DNA of 32,000 bases, from contig NC_017039.1 of NCBI RefSeq assembly GCF_000284455.1, positions 1,350,001 to 1,382,000 on the forward strand, written 5' to 3'. This document shows, piece by piece, positions 14,754-30,917 of this stretch. The first letter of the stretch is position 1. Every line of letters starts with the position of its first letter. Origin of the DNA: Synechocystis sp. PCC 6803 substr. PCC-P. Lineage in GTDB: Bacteria; Cyanobacteriota; Cyanobacteriia; Cyanobacteriales; Microcystaceae. The translations under genes and the position numbers were made by a program. A model generated the notes under the pieces. That model was not told where the DNA came from. It made no database searches and saw only the letters and a list, made by a program, of their open reading frames with translations.

Positions 14754-15242
14754 ATGCAGCTTGGGCGGGAATTAATCATGCCGCTGGGCTTAGCTGTGAC
14801 TTTTGGGTTAACGTTTTCCCCTGCCGCTAAGGTTATGGCCCAAACGCCCTCCACAGATCCAGACTTTGCCAGTGTGAAGCAACAATTGGAAGCCAAGCAA
14901 TTCAAAGTTTTGTTGTCGCCCCCTCCCCAGCGGGGAGCCTATGGATTAATCAATGCTGAAAGCCGCACTATTTGGATTCATCCCCTCACCTTTGAACTGG
15001 GTATTGCGGTGCCGGTCATTATCCATGAGGCAGTCCATGCCGCCCAAGTATGTAAGGGTAAAGGTCAATTAGCCCCCCTGGGGGTAACGGCCGAACCATT
15101 GGTCTATGCCCAACCTTTCTGGCTCAGGTATGGCAATATTCACCGCCAAGACTTGGAGCGGGAAGCATTCACCATACAGACCCAACCCAATCGCATGGCC
15201 TTAGTTTCTGGTTACCTTAATCAATTTTGCCCATCTCGATAA
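14754..15242 (+). CDS. Small exported protein with an HExxH motif (putative metallopeptidase-like)
   Basis: The candidate signal peptide is MQLGRELIMPLGLAVTFGLTFSPAAKVMAQ. The motif VIIHEAVHAAQ is HExxH-like. The start is ambiguous: GTG 14598, ATG 14712 or ATG 14754. Confidence 0.45.
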   Translation: MQLGRELIMPLGLAVTFGLTFSPAAKVMAQTPSTDPDFASVKQQLEAKQFKVLLSPPPQRGAYGLINAESRTIWIHPLTFELGIAVPVIIHEAVHAAQVCKGKGQLAPLGVTAEPLVYAQPFWLRYGNIHRQDLEREAFTIQTQPNRMALVSGYLNQFCPSR

Positions 15243-15243
15243 C

Positions 15244-15351
15244 TCATTTCCGCCAGGGCCAACGGGTACCCATTTCGGTTTTGGCGGACCAAATTAGGTA
15301 AAGCACCAACAGGCCAACGCCTGCAAGAAAGGGCAATAGATCTTCTTTCAT
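15244..15351 (-). CDS. Possible 35-aa single-TM micro-protein (not in the ORF track, too short)
   Basis: My own translation gives ATG (complement of 15349-15351) to TGA (complement of 15244-15246): MKEDLLPFLAGVGLLVLYLIWSAKTEMGTRWPWRK. It has one hydrophobic helix and a basic tail. There is no other support. Confidence 0.2.
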   Translation of the reverse strand: MKEDLLPFLAGVGLLVLYLIWSAKTEMGTRWPWRK

Positions 15352-15538
15352 AACTTCCCACGTCGTAATTTTGCTTAGGCTACAGCAAAAAAAGGCGATC
15401 GCCACAGTCAATGACGACAGACAGGTCCAAACTCAAAATAAAATTTCAATACTAAACAACTTTATTAATCTTTACAGTTTTCCTGAGTTGGTGGAACTAT
15501 CATTGTTTTACCAAGATCCCAACTTGATTATAGAGTTT

Positions 15539-15796
15539 ATGTTTTTACAGTCCTGGAAAAGCTTAGAGGGAACCCATTTGAAGGACAAGTACTTACTTGA
15601 AACCTTGCTTGGGATTGGTGGGTTCGGCGCAGTGTTTCTGTCAAAAACAGTCGGCCACGATGGGGCGATCGCCAAGGTTGCGGTGAAATTAATGGTCTGG
15701 GATAGCAAAAGGGAAAAAGAACAAACCCAAGAACTGGAGTTGGCAACTACGCTCAAGCACGACAGGCTAATCAATTTTGTCGATCTTGATCATTGA
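15539..15796 (+). pseudogene. Truncated Hanks-type Ser/Thr protein kinase, N-lobe only (subdomains I-IV)
   Basis: YLLETLLGIGGFGAVFLSKT is the Gly-rich loop GxGxFG. AKVAVKLM contains the VAxK catalytic lysine. ELELATTLKHDRLINFVD matches the alpha-C helix and subdomain IV (Lx-H-x-x-I). The frame then stops at 15796, 3 nt from the stop of the convergent HNH gene. No HRD, DFG or APE motif follows. Confidence 0.55.
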
Positions 15797-15799
15797 TGC

Positions 15800-16042
15800 T
15801 TAGCAATGGCGACGACGAAAGCGGGGATCAAACTTAGCTCCTTTACTGCCATTACAACTCTGACAAAGAGTTTGCAGATTACTCATGTCATTACTACCGC
15901 CCCTTGCCAAAGGAATAATGTGATCTACCTGTAAAGCCGTTTCATTGTGACTACAACCACAAGCTCGACAACGGTAATTATCCCTTCGGAAAACATACTC
16001 ACGAACGACGGCAGGGATGGGAATACGGGGCGTTTTTTCCAT
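15800..16042 (-). CDS. Small stand-alone HNH endonuclease
   Basis: YRCRACGCS...LQVDHIIPLARGGSNDMSNLQTLCQSCNGSKG is an HNH nuclease motif flanked by CxxC pairs. The probable start is the ATG at 16040-16042 (MEKTPRIPIP...). The track ORF extends to 16102. Confidence 0.8.
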   Translation of the reverse strand: MEKTPRIPIPAVVREYVFRRDNYRCRACGCSHNETALQVDHIIPLARGGSNDMSNLQTLCQSCNGSKGAKFDPRFRRRHC

Positions 16043-16155
16043 GGGAGTGGCACAAGAAACAAGGAAAATATCAATTTTTGTAAAGTCGAAGTCAACGGCC
16101 AATTAGTTTGAGCATAGCCTTGTATTAGAGCGATTTTTCCACTAACGAGGCTTCC

Positions 16156-18594
16156 ATGTCCAAGATTGCGCCCCAATGTCAGAATCTCCGTGAGCAAGTT
16201 AATCAGTTAATCGAGCTTCTGCGCCAGGAACCCACACTCCGCAGTCAGCAGGACACCAGCATTGTGGAAACGGCCTTAGGAAAGGCACTGTCCCCCCGGT
16301 TTGAAATTGTTTTTGCCGGGGCTTTTAGTGCCGGTAAGTCCATGCTGATCAATGCGTTGTTGGAGCGGGAATTGCTTTATAGTGCAGAAGGTCACGCCAC
16401 GGGGACAGAATGTCATATTGAATATGCTAACGCCAATGAAGAAAGGGTAGTGTTAACTTTTTTGAGTGAAGCGGAAATTCGTCAGCAGGCTTTGATTTTA
16501 GCAAAATATCTCAATGTCAATGTGGGGGATTTAAATATTAATCAACCTGAAGCAGTGAAGGTGGTTAGTCAATATTGTCAGAAAATAATTGCAGAAGAAG
16601 GGGGAGAAAATAAGTCAGAACGAGCCAAACAAGCCAATGCTCTACACTTACTACTAATAGGATTTGAGCAAAATCGAGAAAGGATTAATACTGTACAAAA
16701 TTCCACGTATTCTATGGATCAGTTAAATTTTTCTAGTTTAGCTGAAGCGGCAGGTTATGCGAGGCGGGGAGCTAATAGTGCGGTGCTTAAACGATTGGAT
16801 TATTTTTGTAATCACTCATTATTAAAAGATGGCAATGTCTTGGTGGATTTGCCAGGGATTGATGCCCCAGTTAAAGAAGATGCGGAAAGAGCTTACCGTA
16901 AAATTGAAAGCCCGGATACCTCAGCAGTGATCTGTGTGCTTAAACCAGCGGCAGCAGGAGATATGAGTGCAGAAGAAACACAATTATTAGAACGCATCAG
17001 CAAAAATCATGGCATCCGAGATCGGGTATTTTATGTGTTTAATCGCATTGACGATACTTGGTACAATACTCAACTGCGACAACGGCTAGAGGGTTTAATT
17101 CAGTCGCAATTTCGGGATAATTCTAGGGTCTATAAAACCAGTGGTTTACTTGGTTTCTACGGCAGTCAAGTTAAGCAGACTAATAGTAGTACTCGTTTTG
17201 GCTTGGACTCAATTTTTGCCACCACCATCAAAGGTTTTGACGGAGAGGAAGAAACACCACAATTTGTTAGCGAGTTTAATAACTACTGTGCTAATTCTGG
17301 TAAGTTATTGTCCACTGCTTTCCGGGTCTCGGTCAATGGTTATGAAACATCTAATGAAAATTATGTCAGAATTTTAAGTGAATGGGGAATACCATTAGTT
17401 GATCAACTAATCCATGACAGCGGAATTGAATCTTTTCGTTCTGGCATTGGTCTTTATTTAGCAGAGGAAAAATATCCTGAACTATTTGCAACTCTAGCTA
17501 ATGATTTGCAACCGTTATGTATTGCTCTACGGCAATTTTATCTAGAAAATTATCGGCAGTTAGATAGTCAGCCCCGGGAAATTGCGGCGATGAAAGCTCA
17601 GGAATTAACTTTGCTTAATCAAGAAATGCAAAATCTGGGTATTGAGTTCAAAAAATATATGAGTGCTCAAATTAATGATGTGGTTATCGGCAATGATCGG
17701 GAATTTGACCAAGATTTTACTAAGTTAAAAGCAAGAATGGTGGCTCGATTAGATGAGTTGTTAAAAACTTTTTCGGTAATGAATGCCTATAAGCGAGCAA
17801 CGGAAAGTCATCCTCGTAATTCCACAGCTCCTTTTATTGCAGTTTTGGTGGAGGCTTTATATTATCTTGCTAATGAATTGGAAGATGCTTTCATAGAAGC
17901 TATTCATGAGCTAGTTAAAAATTTCTTTCAACGATTAGGCGATCGCCTACGAAAAGTGGATTGTTACCATCAAGTTTATCGTTTGGTTGGCAATGATGGC
18001 GGTATTGAGCAACTATTACGACGGGCGGAAGAAGATATAACTAAAGCCTTGGTTAATGAAGCTCGAACGGAATGTGATCGTTATGTGCGGGAAAGTCCCC
18101 GATTTTATGATGAAGGTACTTTTTCCATTTATCAATTCCGGCAAACTCTCCAGCAAACTTCCCAGGGTTATGATGCCCAGGCGATCGTGGAAGCGGAACC
18201 AGCTATTAAGGAGTTGCTAAAACTAGATTTTGAACCTAAAGTTTTCAATACTGTACGGAAAAATTTCCGACAAACCGTCAATAATACCCTAAAAACCCAT
18301 CTGCTACCAATGGCAGAAGAACAAGCCCAAATAATTTTAGAACAGTATGATGTGGCAAGGAAATATCGTGAGCAAACGTTGGAACAGGATGCCGAAGAAA
18401 AAATTGCTCGCAATTCCCGTTTACAATCGGAGATTAAACAGAAAATCGATCTTTACCAAACGAGTATTGTTAGCATTAATGAATGTTTAAAAGCCATGCA
18501 AATTTTTGAGCAGTTACCTGTTATTACAGAATCAGACATTACTAAGCAAGCAGAAATAGTTGCAGATGCAGATTTTGTGGAAATAGTAGAATAA
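16156..18594 (+). CDS. Dynamin-family large GTPase (bacterial dynamin-like protein), 812 aa
   Basis: The Dynamin_N-type G domain is readable. G1 is FEIVFAGAFSAGKSMLINALLERELL (GAFSAGKS at 16318-16341). The candidate switch-I Thr lies in GHATGTECHIEY. G3 is VLVDLPGIDAP. The G4-like motif is VFYVFNRIDD. About 500 aa of predicted helical stalk follow. I saw no obvious TM segment. Confidence 0.8.
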   Translation: MSKIAPQCQNLREQVNQLIELLRQEPTLRSQQDTSIVETALGKALSPRFEIVFAGAFSAGKSMLINALLERELLYSAEGHATGTECHIEYANANEERVVLTFLSEAEIRQQALILAKYLNVNVGDLNINQPEAVKVVSQYCQKIIAEEGGENKSERAKQANALHLLLIGFEQNRERINTVQNSTYSMDQLNFSSLAEAAGYARRGANSAVLKRLDYFCNHSLLKDGNVLVDLPGIDAPVKEDAERAYRKIESPDTSAVICVLKPAAAGDMSAEETQLLERISKNHGIRDRVFYVFNRIDDTWYNTQLRQRLEGLIQSQFRDNSRVYKTSGLLGFYGSQVKQTNSSTRFGLDSIFATTIKGFDGEEETPQFVSEFNNYCANSGKLLSTAFRVSVNGYETSNENYVRILSEWGIPLVDQLIHDSGIESFRSGIGLYLAEEKYPELFATLANDLQPLCIALRQFYLENYRQLDSQPREIAAMKAQELTLLNQEMQNLGIEFKKYMSAQINDVVIGNDREFDQDFTKLKARMVARLDELLKTFSVMNAYKRATESHPRNSTAPFIAVLVEALYYLANELEDAFIEAIHELVKNFFQRLGDRLRKVDCYHQVYRLVGNDGGIEQLLRRAEEDITKALVNEARTECDRYVRESPRFYDEGTFSIYQFRQTLQQTSQGYDAQAIVEAEPAIKELLKLDFEPKVFNTVRKNFRQTVNNTLKTHLLPMAEEQAQIILEQYDVARKYREQTLEQDAEEKIARNSRLQSEIKQKIDLYQTSIVSINECLKAMQIFEQLPVITESDITKQAEIVADADFVEIVE

Positions 18595-18682
18595 TCAACC
18601 ATGAATTAAAATCTACATTGAGACCAGCAAATAGCTGAATAATTTTTCTTTTGATTTAAGTAACCTTTCTGACATACAAGCA

Positions 18683-19045
18683 ATGCAAATTATCTACGAC
18701 GAATTCCTAGAATCCCTAAATGCTGATGACGTCCTACAGTTATTAGACAAACAGTTTCCCGGCAAATTGTTTTCAGTATCTCGTATTAAACATACCTTAG
18801 AATATTCTTTTCAGCAGCCACCACAAGAGAAATTTATTGAGCAATTAGAACTTGGATCTAGAGCAAGCATTTACTTGGGTCAAGGTGTTGATTGTCGAAT
18901 TTTAAAAGCTGGATCCAGTGGCTGGAAAAAAGGAAGGATTGCAGTTAATGTGTCTGTAGAGTTCATTCCCGATGAGCCTGAGGCAAATGAATATCAATCT
19001 CCGTTAGATGAAATTCGTCGAGAAATACAATCTGATCTTCAATGA
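18683..19045 (+). CDS. Small KGK-like protein, paralog 1 (120 aa)
   Basis: The product ends ...SSGWKKGRIAVNVSVEFIPDEPEANEYQSPLDEIRREIQSDLQ. It shares the (K)KG(K/R)-I-x-(V/I)-x-(L/V)-EFIPDE ... SPLDEIRRE tail with the next two ORFs. It resembles the cyanobacterial KGK domain (Pfam PF08872, recalled from memory). Confidence 0.7.
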   Translation: MQIIYDEFLESLNADDVLQLLDKQFPGKLFSVSRIKHTLEYSFQQPPQEKFIEQLELGSRASIYLGQGVDCRILKAGSSGWKKGRIAVNVSVEFIPDEPEANEYQSPLDEIRREIQSDLQ

Positions 19046-19069
19046 TTTATCAATTGAAATATTAAAAAT

Positions 19070-19453
19070 ATGAAAACCGACAAAATTGGCTACCTTAATT
19101 CACTCAGTGAAGACACTGTTATTGATTGTGGTAATAACCATTCCTTTTACAAAATTAAAACTTTAATCGGTGAGTTTGTTAATTTCTTTAAAACTGTACC
19201 CTGGTGTAATAAAGATTATTTTTATAAAGCTTTTCAAGTTAGTCTGAAAGACCATAAATCAATCGATATTAAACCAGAAATTTTTACAGAAGAAGGTATA
19301 ATTGCTGAAATTATTGATCCTAAATTGGACAAACCGCTAAAGGGAAAATTTAGAATAATCTTTGCCCTGGAGTTTATCCCGGATGAGGTTCAAGATTCAG
19401 TTTCGGATTCTCCCCTCGATGAGATTCGTCGAGAAATAGAGCAAAGTAGCTGA
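19070..19453 (+). CDS. Small KGK-like protein, paralog 2 (127 aa)
   Basis: The product ends ...KPLKGKFRIIFALEFIPDEVQDSVSDSPLDEIRREIEQSS. It starts 24 nt after paralog 1. Confidence 0.7.
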   Translation: MKTDKIGYLNSLSEDTVIDCGNNHSFYKIKTLIGEFVNFFKTVPWCNKDYFYKAFQVSLKDHKSIDIKPEIFTEEGIIAEIIDPKLDKPLKGKFRIIFALEFIPDEVQDSVSDSPLDEIRREIEQSS

Positions 19454-19463
19454 GGACATTACC

Positions 19464-19760
19464 ATGGACAAAAGACAATTACTTAACCCTGAAGATGTAG
19501 TTTCAGTAACTGACTCCGACAAAATATGTATTAATCATAAAACTTTTACTGTTCAAGAATTACTAGGAGCCTTTTTGACAAAATGGTTCAATAGTGATAT
19601 AGGCAAAAGGTGGTTATTTGAAGGTACAGAGTGCCAATATCTTGCCCCCGGTAAGCTATGGAAAAAAGGAAAAATTAAAATAAGCCTTGAATTTATTCCC
19701 GATGAAGCGGAATCACCTCTCGATGAAATTCGTCGAGAAATGACCGAAAATCAATCTTAA
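19464..19760 (+). CDS. Small KGK-like protein, paralog 3 (98 aa)
   Basis: The product ends ...LWKKGKIKISLEFIPDEAESPLDEIRREMTENQS. It starts 10 nt after paralog 2. Its N-terminal half aligns with paralog 2 (C-x-NH-x2-F ... L-x-G-x-F). Confidence 0.7.
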   Translation: MDKRQLLNPEDVVSVTDSDKICINHKTFTVQELLGAFLTKWFNSDIGKRWLFEGTECQYLAPGKLWKKGKIKISLEFIPDEAESPLDEIRREMTENQS

Positions 19761-20119
19761 AAAATTTAGGGATAAAATCAGGGAGCTGAAATATTAAATA
19801 TTAACAAGTTGAGTTTAGAAATAGAGGTAACAGGCGTTTTTAAACTCTCAATTATGATTCACCATACTCCTGTAAAAAGCTGAGGAACTCGGCCGGGGCT
19901 AATCGGGCATCTGGGCCAGGGAGTCGGGCAATAAAGCCAGGATGGTTACCATGGCATTATTCTGGCTAACCCACAACAACCCTAATTATGGCGATCGCCT
20001 AGAATAGAAAACTGAAAGCGGTAATGGAGCCTGAAAATCCCTGATAGTTTTTCTCTGGGGATTGGTTTGCTGAAAAGAGCCTAATTTAATCATTTATTTT
20101 CAAATAATCTCGTTAAACT

Positions 20120-21313
20120 TTGCTAACTTCACTTTTTTTGCCCCTACGTCGTTGCTCCTCCGTTTTATGGGGGGGATTACTCCTCAGCACATTAATGTTA
20201 AGCAGTTGTGCACCGCCCGATCCCCTAGAACAAAAAAGTCAGCCCCCACCGCCCAAGGAAGAAAGTAGCCTCACCCTCAACAATGCCACCCTAGAGCAAG
20301 CCAATGCTAAAGGGCAAACTGTCTGGAAAATTCAGGTGGAGGAAGCTCGGTATAGCGTTGATGGGAAGAATGCCACCCTAGTGAACGTGAAAGGGGATTT
20401 TTACGAAAATGGCAAAGTGGTGCTCCAGGTGAAGGCGGATAAGGGAGAAATTATTGAAGACGGCAAAGCATTATTTCTACGGGAAAATATTGTTGCCCTT
20501 GACCCCCGTAATAAGGCAGTGTTGCGGGCCCAGGAAGTGGAGTGGCAAACGGAATCTAGCATTCTCACTGCTCGGCAAAATTTGAAAGGGGAACACCCTG
20601 ATTTGACCGTGACCGCCAAGGAAGGACGCTATGAAACCAAGGAAGAAAAGCTGATTGTGTCCGGCGATGTGGTGGCGGTGACAGAACACAATACCAAAGA
20701 CCAAAATCAACCCAAGGACCCCCGTCGCTTGGAACTCAAAACCGACAGAATTACCTGGGAAATTAAAAACAACCGGGTTTTTGGCGATCGCCCGTTGACC
20801 CTAGTGCGCTTTGTGGATAAAACTGCCACCGACGAAGTGAAAAGTAACCAAGCAGAATTGTTGCTGAAACAACAGTTGGTACATTTAGCAGGCTTAAATC
20901 AATTTAAATCCGTTGAACCGCCGTTGCAAATTGCCGCCGAACCCATTAGTTGGTCTTACCTAAACCGCTTTGTCTCCACCGATAATCCCATCACTATTGT
21001 GGATTATAAACAACAAATTACTGTGCGGGGTAACCGGGGAGCAGTCAATCTAGCCGACGGGATAGCTAAACTAGAGCAGGGCACTAATACTACGAGCCAG
21101 GAGCAACAATCCCAACTGTATGCCGATGAGTTAACTTACAATTTTGGTCCCCAAACGTTGCAGGCAAAAGGAAATATTATCTATGAACAACAAAAAGGAG
21201 TGAAATTTAACCTCACAGGGGATTTAGCCCAGGGATCTTTACCGGATAATAATGTGGTGGTAACTAGTACTAGCCCCGAAAGGGTAGTGACAGAGATTTT
21301 CCCCAATCAATAA
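20120..21313 (+). CDS. Periplasmic lipoprotein, LptC/OstA-like (tentative)
   Basis: It has a TTG start and a signal peptide with the lipobox LMLSSC. The rest is beta-rich with repeated segments (for example LEQANAKGQTVWKIQVEEARYS, KADKGEIIEDGKALFLRENI) that resemble LptC/LptA-fold proteins. The family call is from memory only. Confidence 0.4.
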   Translation: MLTSLFLPLRRCSSVLWGGLLLSTLMLSSCAPPDPLEQKSQPPPPKEESSLTLNNATLEQANAKGQTVWKIQVEEARYSVDGKNATLVNVKGDFYENGKVVLQVKADKGEIIEDGKALFLRENIVALDPRNKAVLRAQEVEWQTESSILTARQNLKGEHPDLTVTAKEGRYETKEEKLIVSGDVVAVTEHNTKDQNQPKDPRRLELKTDRITWEIKNNRVFGDRPLTLVRFVDKTATDEVKSNQAELLLKQQLVHLAGLNQFKSVEPPLQIAAEPISWSYLNRFVSTDNPITIVDYKQQITVRGNRGAVNLADGIAKLEQGTNTTSQEQQSQLYADELTYNFGPQTLQAKGNIIYEQQKGVKFNLTGDLAQGSLPDNNVVVTSTSPERVVTEIFPNQ

Positions 21314-21481: not shown

Positions 21482-24118
21482 CTAAAAGCCAAAAATATCT
21501 AACTGTTTAGCTTGATCTTCCGCTGCTTCAGCAGCCGCTTGACTAGCCATAACTTTACCCCGATTACCCTTACGTAAACCGACAGCAATTTTACTATGCT
21601 TTTCAATCTGGGCCATTACCTGGCGGGCCCTGGTAATCACTGAACTAGGCAATCCCGCTAAACGTCCCGCTTCAATGCCATAGGATTTATCGGCTCCCCC
21701 CGGTGTTACTTGGTGTAAAAAGATAATTTCCTCTGGCAATTCTTTCACCGTAACTTGAAAGTTAGCCACATTTTCCAGTAAAGAAGCCAACTCGTTTAAC
21801 TCATGGTAATGGGTAGCAAAAATTGTCCGGGCTTGGATTTCCCCCGCTAGATACTCCGCCACCGACCAGGCGATCGCCAAACCGTCAAAGGTGGCCGTGC
21901 CCCGGCCAATTTCATCCAGTAATACCAGGGATTTAGCCGTGGCATGGTTAAGAATATTGGCAGTTTCATTCATTTCCACCATAAAAGTAGACTGCCCCGT
22001 AGCTAGATCATCCACGGCCCCTACTCTGGTAAAAATACGGTCACAAATGCTCAGGGTCGCGGTTTTAGCAGGAATAAAGCTGCCGGTTTGGGCCATTAAC
22101 TGTATTAAGCCAACTTGACGCAAATAACAACTTTTGCCACTGGCGTTGGGCCCCGTCAAAATTACTAAATCAGGATGCCAATGGTCGTGGCCCAATTGGG
22201 TGTCGTTAGCAACAAAAAAACCTGCCCCAAGGGATTGTTCCACCACTGGATGGCGACCTGCTTCAATGTCAATTAAGCCTGGTTCCATTTGCATAATGGG
22301 ACGGCAATAACCCTGATAAACTGCCACTTCCGCTAGACCTGCCAACACATCGATCGCCGCTACGGCCTTGGCCACGTCCCGAATTGGTTGGGCTTTTTCT
22401 GCTACTGTGGCCCGCACTTCGGTAAAAATTTCATACTCCAATTGATTCAAGTCAGCTTGGGCGGTGAGAATACGGGTTTCCCGCTCTTTTAATTCCGGTG
22501 TAATGTATCTTTCTTCATTGACTAAAGTTTGTTTGCGAATGTAATTGTCTGGGGCCTGTTCCGATTTACTGCGGGGTAGACTTAAATAATAACCAAAGGC
22601 TTTGTTATAACCAACTTTTAAATTAGCAATACCAGTTTTTTCCCGCTCCGTTACTTCCAAATTAGCTAACCATTGATTATCATCTTCCAAACTTTGACGC
22701 ATTTCATCCAACGTCGGGTTAACACCACTACGAATTAAATTGCCTTCCCGAATATGTAAGGGGGGATTTTCCACAATGTGGGCTAACACATATTTGCCCA
22801 ATTCTTCCAACTCCGGCGGCACTGTCTGTAAGGCTTTTAAATAGGGGCTATGGCCTTCCTGAGCTAACTCAGCTAAATCCGTCAACCGCACCAAAGAAGA
22901 TGCTAAGCCATACACATCCCTAGCACTGGCGGTGTTGGCCCCAATTCGCCCCGTTAACCGTTCCAAATCGTAAATTTGCCGGAGCAATTGCCGCAAATCC
23001 TGACGCAAAGCGGGATGATGGTACAACTCTTGGATGGTGTCCTGGCGAGCTTGGATACCTTTGAGATCCAATAAAGGCTGCAATAACCAACGCCGCAAAG
23101 CCCGACTACCCATGGTGGTGCTGGTGCGATCTAAAGCCCACAGTAGGGAACCATGGAAACTACCATCCCGCACGGTTTGGTTAATTTCCAAGTTGCGTCG
23201 GGTTTGGTGATCCAAAACCAGAAAATCGGTTAAGCCATAGGTTTTTAATGGTTGAATGGGCACCACATGGGCTTTTTGGGTATCTTCGATATATTCCAAT
23301 AATCCCCCCGCCGCCCGGATTGCTAGGGGTAAACCTTCACAGCCCATGCCCTCCAAAGATTTAACTCGAAAAGTGGTTAGTAATCTCTGTTTTGCTTCCA
23401 CCAAGGAAAAGGGCGCTTGGGAACGGAGAGAATAACAAAAACTGGTGGGTAACTGTTTAGGAATATGCTCTGAAGGTTCCCCAGGGCGCAAAATATTGCG
23501 AATATCGGGGGCAGAGGTGGGTATCAATACTTCCGACGGTTGGAGTCGAAGTAATTCCACTGCTAGGTCATCCAAATTACTGGATTGGCACGTAAAAAAT
23601 TCCCCAGTGGAGATATCCGCATGGGCCAGGCCCCATTTATCCTCCACCATGGCGATCGCCGCCAGGAAATTATTCCGCTTGGCCGGAAGCATACTGTCAT
23701 CGGTCAAAGTGCCGGGGGTGAGTAACTTGGTCACCTGCCGTTCCACCATGCGTTTTTCTGCCTGGGCTTCCGCTGCATCCTCCACCTGGTCACAGATGGC
23801 CACCGCATAACCCTTTTCCACCAACTGCCGCGCATAGCGATCCAAGGCGTGGTGGGGTACCCCAGTCATGGCCACCCGGCCGATTTCCTTGCCCCCCTCT
23901 TTGCTAGTTAAAATCAGTTCCAATTCCCTAGCAATGATCACCGCATCCTGGAAAAAACACTCAAAAAAGTCCCCCACCCGGTAAAGCAACAAAGCCCCTT
24001 GATACTGTTCCTTAACCTCCGTGTAGTGCTGGAACATCGGCGTCAACTTCTGGCGATCGAGGGTGCGATAGTCCCGTTGGGGTTCTTTAACAGTGCCGAG
24101 GATCGGAGTATCAGTCAT
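21482..24118 (-). CDS. mutS: DNA mismatch repair protein MutS
   Basis: The N-terminal mismatch-binding region is [30 protein letters not shown]. Walker A is [10 protein letters not shown] and Walker B is [11 protein letters not shown], followed by FATHYHEL. The likely start is the ATG at 24116-24118 (MTDTPILG...). The track ORF extends to 24220. Confidence 0.93.
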
Positions 24119-24377
24119 GGAAAGGGAAAATTCTGTGGAGCAGCCTTTAATTGTATGAGATTTATCGAAAGCCATCATCAAACTAGTGCATTGATTAGTG
24201 CACTTAAGTCGGCAATCCATAGGAAAAAATATAGTAAATTTTTAGTAAAGTCTTGCCGTCATTGCAAAAGCACGTATTAGTATCGACGGGCGGTTTTATC
24301 GCCTTTTATTCTGTTACCATTACCATAAGAGTGTCTTCCTACGCAAATTTTATAGGATAAAAAAACACATAAGGCTT

Positions 24378-27300
24378 ATGGATTTTACTAAAATAAAGAG
24401 AATTGAAGAGAATTTAAACAGGCTTGAGGACTGTTCTGTTGATGAGTTAAAAGTTTTAACTGATGAACTGTTAGCTTCCATTTGTGAAACCTTAAATATT
24501 TCTCAGAGTTCTAACCTTATTTCAGCTTTATTTAATGAGCGAACAAGTACCAACCAAAAAAAACTAATAGCCGTATCTATGCTAAGAGCCTTATGCAGGA
24601 ATCAAAGCGTAGTTTGGAATCACAATAGTGTCACACTACGCAATAAAACATTTGATTTATTCGATGAGATTTTAGTGGATATTTATAAGCAGTTTCAGAT
24701 AGATATTAAATCAGATAAAGAAGAAAAAACATCAAAACTTCAAGAAATTGAAGGAAATTTAAATCGCAAGTTCTTTAATCTTGAACAATCAATTTGTGAC
24801 TTGAAGGATTTGGATAAATTCAAAAGCGACTTTATGCAATTTTTGTTTGCTGATAAAGTTAATAGCTTTATTTTTAGACAGTTTTCAGATGAAGATATCT
24901 TAAGTAAACCTAAAATACAATCACTATTTAAAATTCTTCAAGATTATCAAAAAAGCAATTCTGTTGAATCAAAAATCAACTATTATGACAATATAAAAAA
25001 TAGTTATCAGGAATTTATTGATCAATGTTCCAAACAATCAGAATTAGTTGAAACTTGTATTGGTAATTTTTTCAAGAGGCTACTTAATTTAGTTGATGAA
25101 GATTATACAAAGAGAGATGATATTGTTCCAACAATAATACGTGTAGAACTCATAAAGAAAAAATATCCTCTCCACATAAAAGACCAACTATTAAATATAG
25201 AAATTCAAGTGAATAATATAGGCAAAGGAAAAGCTTTTGATATTGAAGTTACTCTTGATGTAGATGATAGTTTATTGATGCTTTATGACCCTAAAATATA
25301 TATTGGAAATCTCGAGCCATTAGAATCTACACATCGGATATTTGAAGCCAAAATTCTTGTGCAGAAAAACAAAGAAAAACTAGAAGAAATTATCTTGGGT
25401 AGAGTTGATTGGTATAACTGCGACAAGACCAGGTGCCATGAAGAATTTAGTGGTGAGTTGCTTCCACAAAATACAGAACTAAACTGGGAAAAATTAAGTA
25501 AGGAAAAACCCTACAGTTTAGAGGCTATTTCTAAAGAAAACGATTTAATTGGTCGTTCAGAACAAATTAGACAGCTTGAAAATAAAATTTTCTCTGACGA
25601 ATTAGAATCTTCAATCATCTTTGGACAAAAGAGAGTTGGAAAAACATCAATTGCCAAAATCATTGAAAATAAGCTAAAAAAACATTCACTCTATACTGCA
25701 ATTTATATTTCAGTAGGTTCCCTTGATAAAAGTTCTCCCGAAAAATTCTTAAAATCTTTAGGGGAATATATTTATGAAGAAATCATTGATGATCAACCAT
25801 TCAATGAATATAAACTTCCAGGGTTTGAGTTTGAAGATTCAATTACACCTTTAGATAAATTATTTAGAAAAATACGAAAAATTGAACCCAATCACAAATT
25901 TGTGATTATTCTTGATGAGTTCGATGAAATTCCTTCTCAATTATACAAGCTGACGGATATCGGAGACAATTTTTTTCATAATATTAGAAGTTTAAGCAGT
26001 AACAATAATATTGGATTTATTTTAGTTGGCGGAGAGAATATGACGACAATCAATCAATCAACTGATAAATTAAATAAATTTGAATCCTTTCCAGTTGATT
26101 ATTTTGATAAAGGAAGATTTTGGAAAGACTTTCAAGACTTAGTATGCAAACCTGTTGAAGGAATAATAGAATTTACTGATAATGCAATATTAGAACTCTA
26201 TAAAATGACAGAAGGAAATCCATTTTTTACAAAATTAATATGTGGAAATATTTATAATATGGCTTGTGAAACCAGAAACGCTTATGTTTCTTATGAAGAA
26301 GTTACTAAAGCAATCTCAAAGAGTTTATCTTCCATTAATAGTAATAATGTTAATCATTTCTGGAAAGATGGAATTAAAGAAAGCGATCCAGTAGAAGTAG
26401 ACAAAATTGAAACTCAGAGACGAAAATTTTTAATTTCTTATGCTAGAGAAATTCGCTCAGGCAAGAACAGCTTCACAAAAGAAGTCGTTCTGAATAATAG
26501 CATATTAGACAAGACTGTAACAACAAAGGTATTTGAAAGTTTCGTCAATCGCAAAATTTTGATTGAGGAATCTGAAAACTATAGATTTAAGCCTTTATTC
26601 TTTGATAAATGGCTAACAAATGAAGGTTTTAACATCATTACATCTGAAGCTCTTGATGAGCAAGCTATTGAAGAATTAGAAAAAGAAGAGGACAGGGCTT
26701 ATGTTGAAGACACAGAAATTGTTGATTTATGTAAATCATGGGGAGAGATCGCAACATACAGAGCACAACAAATTACACCTCAACACATTCGCAGTTGGCT
26801 TGATCAATTTTCAAACAATATTGAAAAACGTCTTATGTTCATTCTATTGTTAAATTTAAAGTTTTATACACAAATAGAAGTTAGAGAAAAACTAGGAATC
26901 ATTCATAATGAGGTAAAAAAAGGATTGGTATACAAGCTTCCCAAAAATGCAAAAGGGGAAACAAAAACAAGAGAAGTTTTATTAAGTGCTTTTGGGAGTC
27001 CAACAAAAAGCGGTTCTACCTACTTAAGATTATATGCGACGGTAAATAATTTTTATCGTAGTAGTTCACATAATGTGTCTTTGTCTAAAATCAAAGAAGC
27101 TATTATCCAAGATAAAGAAATTCAAAGAATTGTTTTTATAGAAGATATAATTGGTTCTGGTCAATCAATCATTAGAGGGCTTGATACATTGAGTAATTTA
27201 TGTGGATCTCTGATAAAAGAACATAAAATTACAGTCTTTGTTGGTGCTATCTGTGGCTTTGAATCGGGCATAGAAAATATTGAAATAAAAGGAAATGAAT

Positions 27301-27572
27301 TACCTTTTAATGTCAAGGTATTTGTCTGCGATCATCTCACCGAACAAGATCAGTGTTTCAGTGAGAGTTCATCAATGTTTAATTCTTCTCAGGAAAGGAA
27401 TAAAGCAAAAGAAATTGCTTATACTTATGGCAGTAAACTTGTTAAAACAATGCCTTTAGGATACAAAGATAATCAGCTCCTAGTTTCTTTTTTTGAAACC
27501 TGTCCCAATAATAGCCTTCCCATATTATGGGCAGAGAAAAGTGATTGGAAAGCTATCTTTAGAAGAGACTGA
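24378..27572 (+). CDS. 1064-aa multidomain protein: N-terminal helical region, possible beta-sandwich, STAND/AAA-type P-loop NTPase and C-terminal phosphoribosyltransferase-like domain
   Basis: The LIGRSEQIRQLENKI lead-in precedes Walker A GQKRVGKT (25623-25646). Walker B is FVIILDEFDE (25899-25928). A GNPFFTKLI helix follows, as seen in ATPase_2/AAA_16-type STAND NTPases. The C-terminal motif IVFIEDIIGSGQS (27129-27167) fits the type-I PRTase PRPP loop: hydrophobic run, two acidic residues, hydrophobic, then a small-residue G-x-S/T turn. Residues ~250-345 (IEIQVNNIGKGKAFDIEVTLDV...GNLEPLES) look like a CARDB-type beta-sandwich. Confidence 0.7.
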   Translation: MDFTKIKRIEENLNRLEDCSVDELKVLTDELLASICETLNISQSSNLISALFNERTSTNQKKLIAVSMLRALCRNQSVVWNHNSVTLRNKTFDLFDEILVDIYKQFQIDIKSDKEEKTSKLQEIEGNLNRKFFNLEQSICDLKDLDKFKSDFMQFLFADKVNSFIFRQFSDEDILSKPKIQSLFKILQDYQKSNSVESKINYYDNIKNSYQEFIDQCSKQSELVETCIGNFFKRLLNLVDEDYTKRDDIVPTIIRVELIKKKYPLHIKDQLLNIEIQVNNIGKGKAFDIEVTLDVDDSLLMLYDPKIYIGNLEPLESTHRIFEAKILVQKNKEKLEEIILGRVDWYNCDKTRCHEEFSGELLPQNTELNWEKLSKEKPYSLEAISKENDLIGRSEQIRQLENKIFSDELESSIIFGQKRVGKTSIAKIIENKLKKHSLYTAIYISVGSLDKSSPEKFLKSLGEYIYEEIIDDQPFNEYKLPGFEFEDSITPLDKLFRKIRKIEPNHKFVIILDEFDEIPSQLYKLTDIGDNFFHNIRSLSSNNNIGFILVGGENMTTINQSTDKLNKFESFPVDYFDKGRFWKDFQDLVCKPVEGIIEFTDNAILELYKMTEGNPFFTKLICGNIYNMACETRNAYVSYEEVTKAISKSLSSINSNNVNHFWKDGIKESDPVEVDKIETQRRKFLISYAREIRSGKNSFTKEVVLNNSILDKTVTTKVFESFVNRKILIEESENYRFKPLFFDKWLTNEGFNIITSEALDEQAIEELEKEEDRAYVEDTEIVDLCKSWGEIATYRAQQITPQHIRSWLDQFSNNIEKRLMFILLLNLKFYTQIEVREKLGIIHNEVKKGLVYKLPKNAKGETKTREVLLSAFGSPTKSGSTYLRLYATVNNFYRSSSHNVSLSKIKEAIIQDKEIQRIVFIEDIIGSGQSIIRGLDTLSNLCGSLIKEHKITVFVGAICGFESGIENIEIKGNELPFNVKVFVCDHLTEQDQCFSESSSMFNSSQERNKAKEIAYTYGSKLVKTMPLGYKDNQLLVSFFETCPNNSLPILWAEKSDWKAIFRRD

Positions 27573-27688
27573 TTTTTTATGATTATCGTTTTATCAAAAA
27601 TTGGGAATTATTGTTAATCATGTGCGTTTGTCGTGCGAGTATTTTACCAGCTATTTGCTAACCAAACCGCAAAAATCTAGATGATTGT

Positions 27689-28738
27689 CTAAACTCCCCT
27701 AAAGCCCACATTTGTATCCATTGCTTCCCGGGAATTTAAAGGCTTTGAAGCTTGCTTATCTTTTGCTGTTTTCAGATTATCAATAAAACTTAGTATTGCC
27801 CCCAACAACAACAAGATTCCGCCTAAATACTGAGCGTTTGTGGGCGTTTCCAGCAAGATTAGATAGGCAAAAATAATCGCCAAAATAGGAGTTACTAGAC
27901 TTGCTAAGTTAATTTGAATAAAACTTGCATTTTTGAGACCGGCTAACCAAGCCACTTGACCAACAACGACAATAATAGCACCATAAATTAACATCCATCG
28001 CCATAAAATGGGAGAAGAAACATCCATAAAATGGTCAAATCCGTAAATAATAACTGCTATCCAAAAAAACACAAAAGTTCCCAGCAAACTACGATAAACA
28101 GTAAAAATACCTACGGGAATAGATTGTAATTGTTGCTTACTCAAAATTGTTGTGATTGCTGAAATAAAAGCGGCGATCGCCACAAAGCTTTCCCCCAAGC
28201 CAAAATCGAAATTTATCACCATATCAAGGGGATCAGCAACCCCCCAAAAAACCGTAACAGCGACTCCGACAAAGGAAATCAAGGTCGCCACCATGCTTAA
28301 CCAATTAACTGATATTTTCAGTAATAAAATACTTAAAATTAAGGTAAAAACTGGTTCCAGCCGTCCAATTAAAACCACATTTGTTACATTAGTTTTTTCC
28401 AAAGCACTGAACATTAATCCAGGGGCGATCGCCCTTGACAAAATGGCTGTAACAGTCAAAAGGAACCAATCTTTTCGGGTTAATTTTCTTAATTTATGAA
28501 GTTGCCAATCAGGGTGAAAAATTAAGATCATCAAACCCAAGGCGCATAAATTACCAACAAAGAGGACATTACAGAAGGAAATAGGATTCCGACCGTTGAT
28601 CTCATACGTTTTACCCAATTCAATAATACGACTAGTTACAGGATTGGCAGCCGAAAAAATAACAACGGCAAGGGCAAGATAAATTGGACTATGAACTTGT
28701 TTGAGAAAAGTCTGAAAGCCAGAAAAAACATGTTTCAT
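27689..28738 (-). CDS. DMT-superfamily (EamA-type) transporter, about 10 TM helices
   Basis: The 349-aa product is almost entirely hydrophobic helices arranged as two similar halves, as in EamA/DMT permeases. The C-terminal tail is hydrophilic. Confidence 0.75.
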   Translation of the reverse strand: MKHVFSGFQTFLKQVHSPIYLALAVVIFSAANPVTSRIIELGKTYEINGRNPISFCNVLFVGNLCALGLMILIFHPDWQLHKLRKLTRKDWFLLTVTAILSRAIAPGLMFSALEKTNVTNVVLIGRLEPVFTLILSILLLKISVNWLSMVATLISFVGVAVTVFWGVADPLDMVINFDFGLGESFVAIAAFISAITTILSKQQLQSIPVGIFTVYRSLLGTFVFFWIAVIIYGFDHFMDVSSPILWRWMLIYGAIIVVVGQVAWLAGLKNASFIQINLASLVTPILAIIFAYLILLETPTNAQYLGGILLLLGAILSFIDNLKTAKDKQASKPLNSREAMDTNVGFRGV

Positions 28739-29909: not shown

Positions 29910-30917
29910 TTAAGAAGATTTTAGCCAAGAACCTGCAAATTTTTTAACAAATGTCAGAAGCCGTTGACGACGTGGAACAACCTCAACATCTTCGATAATG
30001 GGGGGAGTGCCTTGCATTGCCAAAATTTCATAGGCTTGCAGAGTAGTTTCTTTTTCTTTGAGGATGATTTGATTGCCGACCCTTGCCTGGTTCTTAATTA
30101 CCTGATAAACATCTTGGGAAACTAATAGTTGTGTTCCTTTTAGTTTGTTTGCTGATTCGAGAAGATTGACAATGGCGGCCACCTCACCTAGGGGCGTTAA
30201 TAGGGTAGATTGCGCCGCCACCAATGGAACAAAAACAACACTTCCAGAATGAATCCCCATACTTAAATTCAAGGGGCGATAGCGCATTTGATTTAATAAG
30301 GTATTTAATTCTTGAACTGATTTAAACATTTCCAAGGCTGCCCAAGTTGCCCTTTCTGCAGCAGAAACATCAAACTCCTTGAGACCAAAAGCAACCAACA
30401 TTTTTCGTCCCATGACGTTGGAAATTGTCCCTCCATATTTTTCAATAATTTTTTGCATTTGACTGAAATAGCGTCCCATAACATAGACAATATCGTAGGG
30501 AAAATTAACTTCATCAAAATTAGTTGCCCCACGAATATTAGCCATTAATAGGGCAACATTGCGCTCGGTATTGATTGCCCCCGTAGTTAATTGATGATCA
30601 ATTAAATCTATATCGCCCTCATCCAACACTAAACGACGGATAGTTGCTGAATTTGATAGTTTTGTTTGACACGCTAGACGGACGTGAAAGGGAAAATCTA
30701 ATTTTTTAGCAAGGGCTTGTTCGATACTGGTAGGAGGACTACAATTTTTTATACCATCTAGAACCATAATGCGGCAGGTTGAGCAATTGGCTTTCCCGCC
30801 GCACACACTTATGTGGGCAATATCACCCTTTAAAAGGGCATCCAAAATAGTCTCGTTTGAGTCAATTTCCAGTAATCGATTGTCGGGCAAACAGATAAGA
30901 GTCGGCACTTTATTCAC
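29910..30917 (-). CDS. [2Fe-2S] ferredoxin domain fused to a degenerate class III nucleotidyl-cyclase homology domain
   Basis: The N-terminus has the Cys pattern C-x5-C-x2-C...C (VCGGKANCSTCRIMV ... RLACQ). The C-terminal 200 aa align to the CHD fold (NVALLMANIRGATNF... YGGTISNVMGRKMLVAFG ... SMGIHSGSVV ... PLGEVAAIVNLLES). The canonical metal-binding Asp residues and the Asn/Arg are replaced. The start is a GTG. Confidence 0.65.
   Translation of the reverse strand: MNKVPTLICLPDNRLLEIDSNETILDALLKGDIAHISVCGGKANCSTCRIMVLDGIKNCSPPTSIEQALAKKLDFPFHVRLACQTKLSNSATIRRLVLDEGDIDLIDHQLTTGAINTERNVALLMANIRGATNFDEVNFPYDIVYVMGRYFSQMQKIIEKYGGTISNVMGRKMLVAFGLKEFDVSAAERATWAALEMFKSVQELNTLLNQMRYRPLNLSMGIHSGSVVFVPLVAAQSTLLTPLGEVAAIVNLLESANKLKGTQLLVSQDVYQVIKNQARVGNQIILKEKETTLQAYEILAMQGTPPIIEDVEVVPRRQRLLTFVKKFAGSWLKSS

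Follow-up and report, generated by a model that had tools for sequence, protein, structure and literature searches.

The 32,000-nt stretch of Synechocystis sp. PCC 6803 substr. PCC-P analysed in this study (contig NC_017039.1, positions 1,350,001 to 1,382,000; hereafter the window, which always denotes the whole stretch) contains, at positions 15797-19760, a compact module of five open reading frames (ORFs): a gene for a small HNH nuclease, a divergently oriented gene for a dynamin-like protein (DLP), and three consecutive genes for small KGK-domain proteins (KGK1, KGK2 and KGK3). The initial annotation, made from the nucleotide sequence alone, had described this layout, and the gaps of 113, 88, 24 and 10 nt that it gave agree exactly with the ORF list. 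All five of its domain assignments were also right, each scoring above the Pfam gathering cut-off: the HNH protein matches HNH_5 (E = 1.5e-18, 66.9 bits, cut-off 27.5) and HNH (8.3e-15, 55.1 bits, cut-off 21.4), the DLP matches Dynamin_N (2.2e-16), and KGK1, KGK2 and KGK3 match KGK (PF08872) with E-values of 4.1e-27, 2.5e-24 and 2.6e-12, respectively, the last one over the C-terminal half of the model. Comparison of the locus with its counterparts in other cyanobacteria reveals the HNH nuclease to be a conserved third partner of the DLP-KGK pair, the usual operon consisting of DLP followed by one to five KGK genes and then HNH. In Synechocystis this order has been altered by a derived inversion, which has flipped HNH upstream of DLP.

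Table 1. Features of the module and its immediate surroundings (window coordinates)
Feature	Position	Strand	Remarks
141-aa ORF, very likely slr0868	15371-15796	+	Stops 3 nt from the HNH stop codon; probably outside the module
HNH gene	15800-16042	-	80 aa from ATG; unnamed in the original Kazusa annotation
Divergent intergenic region HNH/slr0869	16043-16155		113 nt; presumed promoters
slr0869 = SynDLP, dynamin-like GTPase (DLP)	16156-18594	+	812 aa; Dynamin_N
slr0870 = KGK1	18683-19045	+	120 aa, acidic; hypervariable, DLP-proximal; name via exact-sequence look-up
Constant 3' segment of KGK1	18959-19026	+	Codes EFIPDE...SPLDEIRREI
slr0871 = KGK2	19070-19453	+	127 aa, acidic; variable; name via exact-sequence look-up
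Equivalent segment of KGK2	19370-19437	+	
KGK3	19464-19760	+	98 aa; distal, more stable copy; unnamed by Kazusa
Equivalent segment of KGK3	19689-19741	+	

All 812 residues of the DLP are identical to those of PDB 7ZW6 chain A, named "Slr0869 protein", and the identity to 9EM7 and 9EM8 is likewise 100%; the DLP of the window is SynDLP (Slr0869) of Synechocystis sp. PCC 6803. No cyanobacterial dynamin has been characterised better, and its assembly is described as "eukaryote-like". Its cryo-EM structure is PDB 7ZW6, and the purified protein builds ordered oligomers, hydrolyses GTP, carries a C8-C777 disulfide in the BSE domain and, in vitro, binds negatively charged thylakoid lipids and fuses liposomes (PMC10104851). 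According to the same authors, SynDLP is expressed and non-essential in standard conditions; they state that its in vivo role is unknown, favour membrane repair, and invoke accessory proteins that restrain futile GTP hydrolysis (PMC10104851).

SynDLP has the features of the KGK clade of cyanobacterial dynamin-like proteins, which was defined by a KGK-domain gene typically located downstream (Jilly et al. 2018, PMC5827413), a pairing restated for SynDLP itself (Gewehr et al. 2023, PMC10104851). A KGK gene begins 88 nt past its stop codon; the extended P-loop, GAFSAGKSMLINALL at residues 55-69, is of the type GxxxxGKS/TxL/INALL/I described for bacterial dynamin-like proteins of this clade (PMC5827413) and is invariant in an alignment of diverse orthologs; and, among 15 diverse SynDLP orthologs, C8 is at least 90% conserved and C777 invariant. 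Both SynDLP and the DLP-KGK pairing had thus been published, and the suggestion in the initial annotation that the system is wholly undescribed is overstated. A full-text search of the available literature for a system combining a dynamin-like protein with HNH gave no relevant match, and the main texts of PMC5827413 and PMC10104851 do not mention HNH. The supplementary table of PMC5827413 tags the gene downstream of the DLP as "HNH nuclease" or "restriction endonuclease" in a few members of the clade, without comment.

For the comparison across cyanobacteria, 80 loci were fetched from species-representative genomes encoding DLP orthologs, which are 63-84% identical across cyanobacterial orders, and the six-frame ORFs of these loci were searched with the window HNH protein and with a hidden Markov model made from the window KGK genes. 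Operon content was counted only in the 66 loci whose sequence continues for 3 kb or more downstream. An HNH ortholog (about 81 aa, E = 1e-27 to 1e-39) was found in 40 of the 80 loci, and in 39 of these it lies on the same strand as DLP and downstream of it, after 0-5 KGK genes. That HNH belongs with DLP-KGK, as initially proposed, is invisible in the window, where it is divergent, and becomes apparent from the 39 other loci, where it is the last gene of the operon. Clustering of the flanking ORFs returned DLP, KGK (73 genes in 40 loci) and HNH (40 loci) as the sole recurrent families; the others occur in at most 13 loci and represent lineage-specific synteny only.

The full triad is present in 32 of the 66 loci and in 22 of the 30 named genera or families. 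Six further loci contain DLP and HNH, five DLP and KGK, and 23 DLP alone, 17 of the latter being from Microcystis or Nostoc. In three complete genomes, Pfam-labelled gene calls gave the order DLP, one to four KGK genes, HNH, with lpxB, clpXP, tig and atpBE as flanking genes. The pairwise identities of DLP and HNH are correlated (Mantel r = 0.76, a value reached in 0 of 2000 permutations), and the two proteins have nearly the same mean identity (0.72 for DLP, 0.73 for HNH).

The HNH protein is a minimal, basic (pI 9.5) nuclease of the beta-beta-alpha-Me type, 80 aa long and devoid of extra domains. Among solved structures it is most closely related to the phage GVE2 HNH (5H0M) and to the HNH domains of Cas9/IscB. 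The motif C..C..DHIIPLA.GG.ND.SNL.TLC..CN..K, which includes the zinc CxxC pairs, the D-H and the Asn, is kept in the 40 orthologs. With these zinc ligands and catalytic residues, and with the Pfam scores given above, the protein belongs to the HNH/beta-beta-alpha-Me superfamily and is predicted to be an active nuclease. A TTG-extended form of 100 aa (to 16102) was considered and rejected, as the orthologs begin with M-x-K-T-P-R-I at the ATG of the 80-aa form.

A divergent HNH/DLP pair like that of the window was found elsewhere only in locus L001, whose DLP is 84% identical and whose left-hand genes are entirely different. In three Microcystis loci (L081-L083, 7388-8243) a KGK-HNH pair is split from the lone DLP and is flanked by an epimerase gene on one side and by rpsP-khpA on the other; obg and a ComEC-type competence gene are close by, and this layout is the same in three independent assemblies. 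In four loci (L002, L047, L048 and L067) HNH directly follows DLP with no KGK gene between them.

A further small protein, of which the window holds no copy, was noticed in nine loci. This conserved protein of about 80 aa ("f11"; ...FPWLYEVKTKAGINISKSRHAGTF...CEWLYPYRC), with one predicted membrane helix, is encoded after HNH or 1.5-2 kb downstream of DLP, e.g. at L065 8598-8921, L067 8692-8937 and L021 11940-12182.

The KGK genes behave differently from DLP and HNH. The three copies of the window are true but old paralogs, 24-37% identical, and across the phylum the mean identity of KGK proteins is 0.35, the conserved part being a C-terminal motif, G.dCeiL...W.KGK...lEF.pdE...SPLDDlR, of which W.KGK...lEF.pdE...SPLDDlR is kept in 79 KGK proteins. 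When 1.84 billion representative proteins were searched with a profile, the family came to 1343 clusters at 50% identity. The best 150 matches are all small, stand-alone proteins, mostly of 110-150 aa, a few of them with two KGK domains, and no fusion to another domain is apparent among these 150. In the AlphaFold (AF2) model of KGK1 (pLDDT 80) a linker joins a small alpha/beta domain to a terminal helix, and a Foldseek comparison of this model with the PDB gave no significant relative (best E = 0.54, TM <0.25). PADLOC returned no match for the KGK proteins, and NCBIfam a single one, for KGK2, far below the cut-off.

Variation of the array was followed within the genus in four Synechocystis genomes, including that of the window, which share the order pyrF-TPR-slr0867-HNH(-)-DLP-KGKn-lptC-mutS. 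In the three other strains DLP is 98-99%, HNH 92-100% and LptC 97-100% identical to the window proteins, whereas the best matches of KGK1 and KGK2 reach only 29-54% and 40-72%, respectively; KGK3 is 89-98% identical. The arrays of the four strains hold two, three, three plus one broken, and four KGK genes. Identity in the DNA alignments is 95-98% as far as the stop codon of DLP; the alignments then break off within the array and start again ahead of lptC. BLAST breakpoints and short cross-matches fall on the segments that code for the constant tail, and two families of direct repeats (D1 and D2) are located there. Gene conversion among the 3' ends of the KGK genes was considered: matched residues share their codons in 58% of cases within loci versus 44% between loci, a gap too small to tell conversion from codon bias. 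These alignments indicate that KGK genes are swapped between near-identical strains, and the diversification of the KGK proteins noted in the initial annotation extends far beyond what the window displays.

In Synechocystis sp. B12 (L091 4485-6921) the DLP is called as three pieces of 63, 104 and 626 aa despite 97% DNA identity to the window, which indicates either a pseudogene or a mistake in the assembly. Solo KGK genes were found on plasmids, at L093 5013-5312 (Nostoc pNsp_f), L094 4536-4973 (Nostoc pNPM6) and L095 4824-5180 (Calothrix). On both Nostoc plasmids the KGK gene adjoins a tyrosine recombinase gene, with a pentapeptide-repeat gene near. The SPLDDIR-type tail is kept in two of the three plasmid-encoded proteins, and the third is truncated before it.

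The opposite charges of the two small proteins (median pI 4.9 for KGK and 9.6 for HNH) would suit a nuclease-inhibitor pair of the toxin-antitoxin kind, in which KGK neutralises HNH until DLP, sensing membrane damage or infection, removes KGK, as in abortive infection. The KGK-HNH junction, which in 12 of 32 loci measures at most 10 nt or is a 4-8 nt overlap, has the usual antitoxin-toxin layout; the pair persists without DLP in Microcystis, and the solo KGK genes beside recombinases on Nostoc plasmids could serve as counter-measures. However, a toxic nuclease should not tolerate the absence of its inhibitor, and HNH occurs with no KGK gene nearby in Nostoc, Pannus and Cyanobacterium stanieri, as well as directly after DLP in the four loci listed above. 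Moreover, cognate inhibitor pairs co-vary, while here HNH is near-invariant and KGK hypervariable, and the HNH gene of the window is transcribed separately from the KGK genes. Neither the obligate adjacency nor the co-variation of type II toxin-antitoxin or nuclease-immunity pairs was observed, and we regard this explanation as improbable.

Published transcriptomic data bear on the operon proposed for DLP and KGK. In RNA-seq of lexA-disrupted Synechocystis, slr0868 was up 16-fold, slr0869 8-fold, slr0870 6-7-fold and slr0871 8-11-fold (PMC4759255). As they rise jointly, these plus-strand genes behave as one LexA-repressed unit, and the joint induction of slr0869, slr0870 and slr0871 (6-11-fold) shows DLP and KGK to be co-regulated. 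In addition, slr0869 appears in the SyCrp1 substrate list, with a SyCrp1 site proposed upstream (PMC3159480), and is listed in the literature as SigC/SigE-dependent. A scan of positions 15200-20200 for consensus promoters and terminators gave fewer sites than shuffled controls.

The ORF that precedes the module is very likely slr0868, the gene order being taken from accession numbers; the gene farther upstream is slr0867 (exact-sequence look-up). In its C-terminal half the ORF looks like a Ser/Thr kinase N-lobe (Pkinase 1.7e-4, which is below the cut-off; MAD6 1.4e-7). S. salina lacks the ORF and CACIAM 05 has only part of it, and we treat it as a strain-specific remnant. It was rejected as a fourth component of the module, being a fragment that sister strains have partly or not at all and that none of the other loci contains. 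In the lexA mutant no gene of the cluster is induced more strongly than slr0868, and read-through from the ORF would be antisense to HNH.

A rival explanation is that the locus serves membrane or thylakoid maintenance alone: SynDLP would repair or remodel membranes, the KGK proteins would do no more than adjust its GTPase activity and oligomerisation, and HNH would be a conserved cyanobacterial housekeeping nuclease that often shares the operon by chance, without mechanistic coupling. The in vitro binding and fusion of thylakoid-type lipid membranes by SynDLP, together with the preference of its authors for membrane repair, is consistent with this, as is the finding that DLP and HNH look like vertically inherited core-type genes in housekeeping contexts, with HNH solo in several genomes and DLP alone in the 23 loci mentioned. 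LexA of Synechocystis controls stress, pilus and salt genes, with no SOS response (PMC4759255), which also agrees with a maintenance role. On the other hand, the chance of a 240-bp single-copy gene lying within 8 kb of DLP is about 0.3% (a rough estimate), yet it does so in 40 of the 80 species. Adjacency has been kept through an inversion and changed flanks, and HNH stays beside KGK even away from DLP. Finally, simple regulators of a GTPase conserved at 98% would not be expected to be only 29-54% identical within one genus. We therefore consider pure maintenance unlikely, though a serious alternative.

The initial annotation leaned towards a conflict or defence module in a compositionally foreign patch, with membrane stress or thylakoid remodelling as the alternative; the defence reading is considered here as that of a recently acquired, foreign defence island encoding a novel dynamin-HNH anti-phage system. 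The AT-richness on which it leaned is real in direction, with G+C contents of 40.0% for DLP, 37.7, 33.1 and 35.0% for the KGK genes and 45.7% for HNH against 48.9% in the flanks; its by-eye values (37% for DLP, 27-30% for the small genes) were a few points below those measured. The single copy of HIP1 was found as described, at 17939. This depletion is mild, as the 28 copies in 32 kb (about 0.9-1.2 copies/kb) lead one to expect 3.5-4.8 in the module.

The AT-richness does not mark the module as foreign, since low G+C is common to these families in other cyanobacteria: relative to the flanks, KGK genes are 8.3 points lower (in 37 of 38 loci), DLP 2.6 (58 of 70) and HNH 1.7. Low G+C is thus a family trait, and the relatedness of the DLPs follows taxonomy, their identity dropping with taxonomic distance. 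The initial annotation had asked whether dynamin-like, KGK and HNH genes co-occur and whether they sit in defence islands. Co-occurrence is seen in the 32 triads; the module is not in a defence island, its neighbours being housekeeping genes both here (pyrF, lptC and mutS) and elsewhere. It had also named synteny across the genus as evidence that would count against a defence role, and DLP and HNH are indeed syntenic in the four Synechocystis genomes. This weakens the defence reading without removing it, as a hypervariable KGK array and a nuclease still fit a conflict role.

PADLOC added little to the case for an anti-phage system, with LeoA/LeoBC matches at the level of the P-loop and generic HNH matches. 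The LeoA match covers residues 9-71 of SynDLP (E = 5e-8, 30 bits) and the LeoBC match residues 46-268 (25.8 bits), both low scores, and the PtuB and ZorE matches on the HNH core are weak (E about 1e-3 to 1e-4). No relatives of DLP or KGK were found on IMG/VR viral contigs, no relatives of DLP in a plasmid search, and no relatives of KGK3 in phage records. The traits of a mobile defence island are therefore missing, with the solo KGK genes on three Nostocales plasmids as the sole exception. These observations, and above all the syntenic locus with its DLP at 98-99% identity in four genomes, largely refute a recently acquired island, which we judge highly improbable in spite of the lower G+C, the single HIP1 copy, the weak PADLOC matches and a defence-type gene located 4.6 kb downstream, beyond lptC and mutS.

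The latter gene (24378-27572, plus strand) encodes a protein of 1064 aa with a STAND/AAA-type ATPase region (390-615) and a C-terminal PRTase-CE domain (PF24390, 1.1e-52), matched by PADLOC PRTase_III-A at 2.7e-41. Nowhere else in the window is the DNA as AT-rich (28-32% G+C), and no HIP1 copy occurs from 23660 to 28172. As a candidate for a defence gene gained by horizontal transfer, it is far stronger than the DLP module. Still farther downstream (29910-30917, minus strand) lies a gene for a 335-aa protein with 2Fe-2S ferredoxin and adenylate/guanylate cyclase domains and a weak PADLOC match of the PycC-like type (3e-10).

Taken together, the results lead us to favour, tentatively and with somewhat less than an even chance of being right, an old, vertically inherited, LexA-repressed and non-essential stress or conflict module, with the DLP as a scaffold, interchangeable KGK proteins as adaptors and HNH as the output. 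Three-way gene linkage, co-divergence of DLP and HNH, the contrast in conservation and vertical chromosomal inheritance are its direct support. SynDLP is the constant, membrane-bound and self-oligomerising GTPase scaffold, which others have demonstrated in vitro (PMC10104851). The acidic KGK proteins would act as exchangeable adaptors or regulators: judging by the conservation pattern, their constant tail (the W-KGK...EF-PDE...SPLDD/EIR helix) may dock on the constant partners, while the fast-evolving N-terminal body may recognise a ligand that differs between strains, e.g. one derived from an invader or from stress. The basic 80-aa HNH, with its intact catalytic core and no targeting domain, would provide a constant DNA-cutting output or act as a co-factor. 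Such a module would be dispensable in standard growth, held low by LexA and induced as a unit with other stress genes.

Several points weigh against this stress or conflict module. The HNH ortholog stands solo among housekeeping genes in some Nostoc, Pannus and Cyanobacterium stanieri, therefore co-transcription is not obligatory and HNH may have its own job; DLP, in turn, is alone in more than a third of the loci counted (23/66). Co-divergence of DLP and HNH would also arise if both follow the species tree. In the window, HNH is on the opposite strand to DLP and KGK, and the lexA RNA-seq covers slr0868-slr0871, the HNH gene having been unannotated at that time. The hypervariability of KGK could reflect relaxed constraint and not diversifying selection. 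Finally, phylum-wide vertical conservation, a housekeeping setting and no support from PADLOC are unusual for an anti-phage system.

Turnover of the KGK genes next to a nuclease makes a role related to invaders or foreign DNA plausible, even though phylum-wide vertical conservation makes the module unlike a typical mobile defence system. In its boldest form, which we think doubtful and would not expect to hold, the stress or conflict module would be a phylum-wide machine of innate immunity or invader-DNA surveillance, composed of a dynamin scaffold at the membrane, a minimal HNH and a recombining KGK "specificity" array whose members combine a constant SPLDD/EIR docking tail with a hypervariable recognition body, and the solo KGK proteins of plasmids would be blocking decoys. 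This would give SynDLP and the KGK fold their first physiological role, and for the first time a dynamin would be seen to direct a nuclease. More generally, if the three proteins work together, they would constitute the first dynamin-nuclease coupling and provide a function for a cyanobacteria-restricted family of 1300 clusters. Otherwise, what remains is simply the SynDLP operon as already described, and the claim of a "novel defence island" can be given up. In either case, candidate accessory partners for SynDLP can now be named, i.e. a near-invariant nuclease and a strain-variable KGK array.

The module can be compared with several known systems. DynA of B. subtilis is a dynamin-like protein that reportedly limits phage spread by membrane protection, and is said to be non-essential and to fuse membranes in vitro without nucleotide. 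Like SynDLP, it is a conserved chromosomal bacterial DLP, an analogy drawn by the SynDLP authors themselves (PMC10104851). However, DynA consists of two fused DLP units (about 1200 aa) and has no dedicated partners, whereas SynDLP has one GTPase head in 812 aa and is accompanied by KGK and HNH; with the NCBIfam DynA model (NF052648) it scores 24.8 bits against a cut-off of 1600, and so is not a two-headed DynA. Eleos (formerly "Dynamins", LeoA/LeoBC) is composed of two or three tandem paralogous DLP genes, with no nuclease and no KGK. It resembles the module in that dynamin-family GTPases are tied to anti-phage defence, and its PADLOC models weakly match SynDLP. On the other hand, the window has a single DLP, the match is confined to the P-loop region, and the NCBIfam LeoA score is 13.9 bits against a cut-off of 325, which places the locus outside Eleos.

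Septu (PtuA/PtuB) and Zorya II (ZorE) share with the module the partnership of an NTPase with an HNH effector. Here, a dynamin takes the place of the ABC/SMC-type ATPase or MotAB-like stator, the HNH protein has only 80 aa, and no PtuA-like or ZorAB-like gene is present among the window neighbours, hence the locus is neither a Septu nor a Zorya. Moreover, these systems are sporadic and island-borne, while DLP-KGK-HNH is vertically conserved. Eukaryotic dynamin/Drp1 with its SH3 adaptors or with Mff/Fis1/MiD may serve as a working analogy only, that of one GTPase scaffold with diverse small adaptors that have a docking element in common; the eukaryotic adaptors have no homology to KGK, the fold of which is without a solved relative.

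The closest comparison is with the KGK clade and SynDLP papers, which deal with the same protein and the same locus, with KGK directly downstream. The clade papers describe one KGK gene as "typically" present, without the range of 0-5 copies, the hypervariability of KGK between strains or DLP-KGK-HNH as the commonest operon. What the present analysis adds is the nuclease as a conserved partner that co-diverges with the DLP, the recognition of DLP-KGKn-HNH as the commonest arrangement of the module and of the Synechocystis form as a derived inversion, and a KGK array that is hypervariable within one genus.

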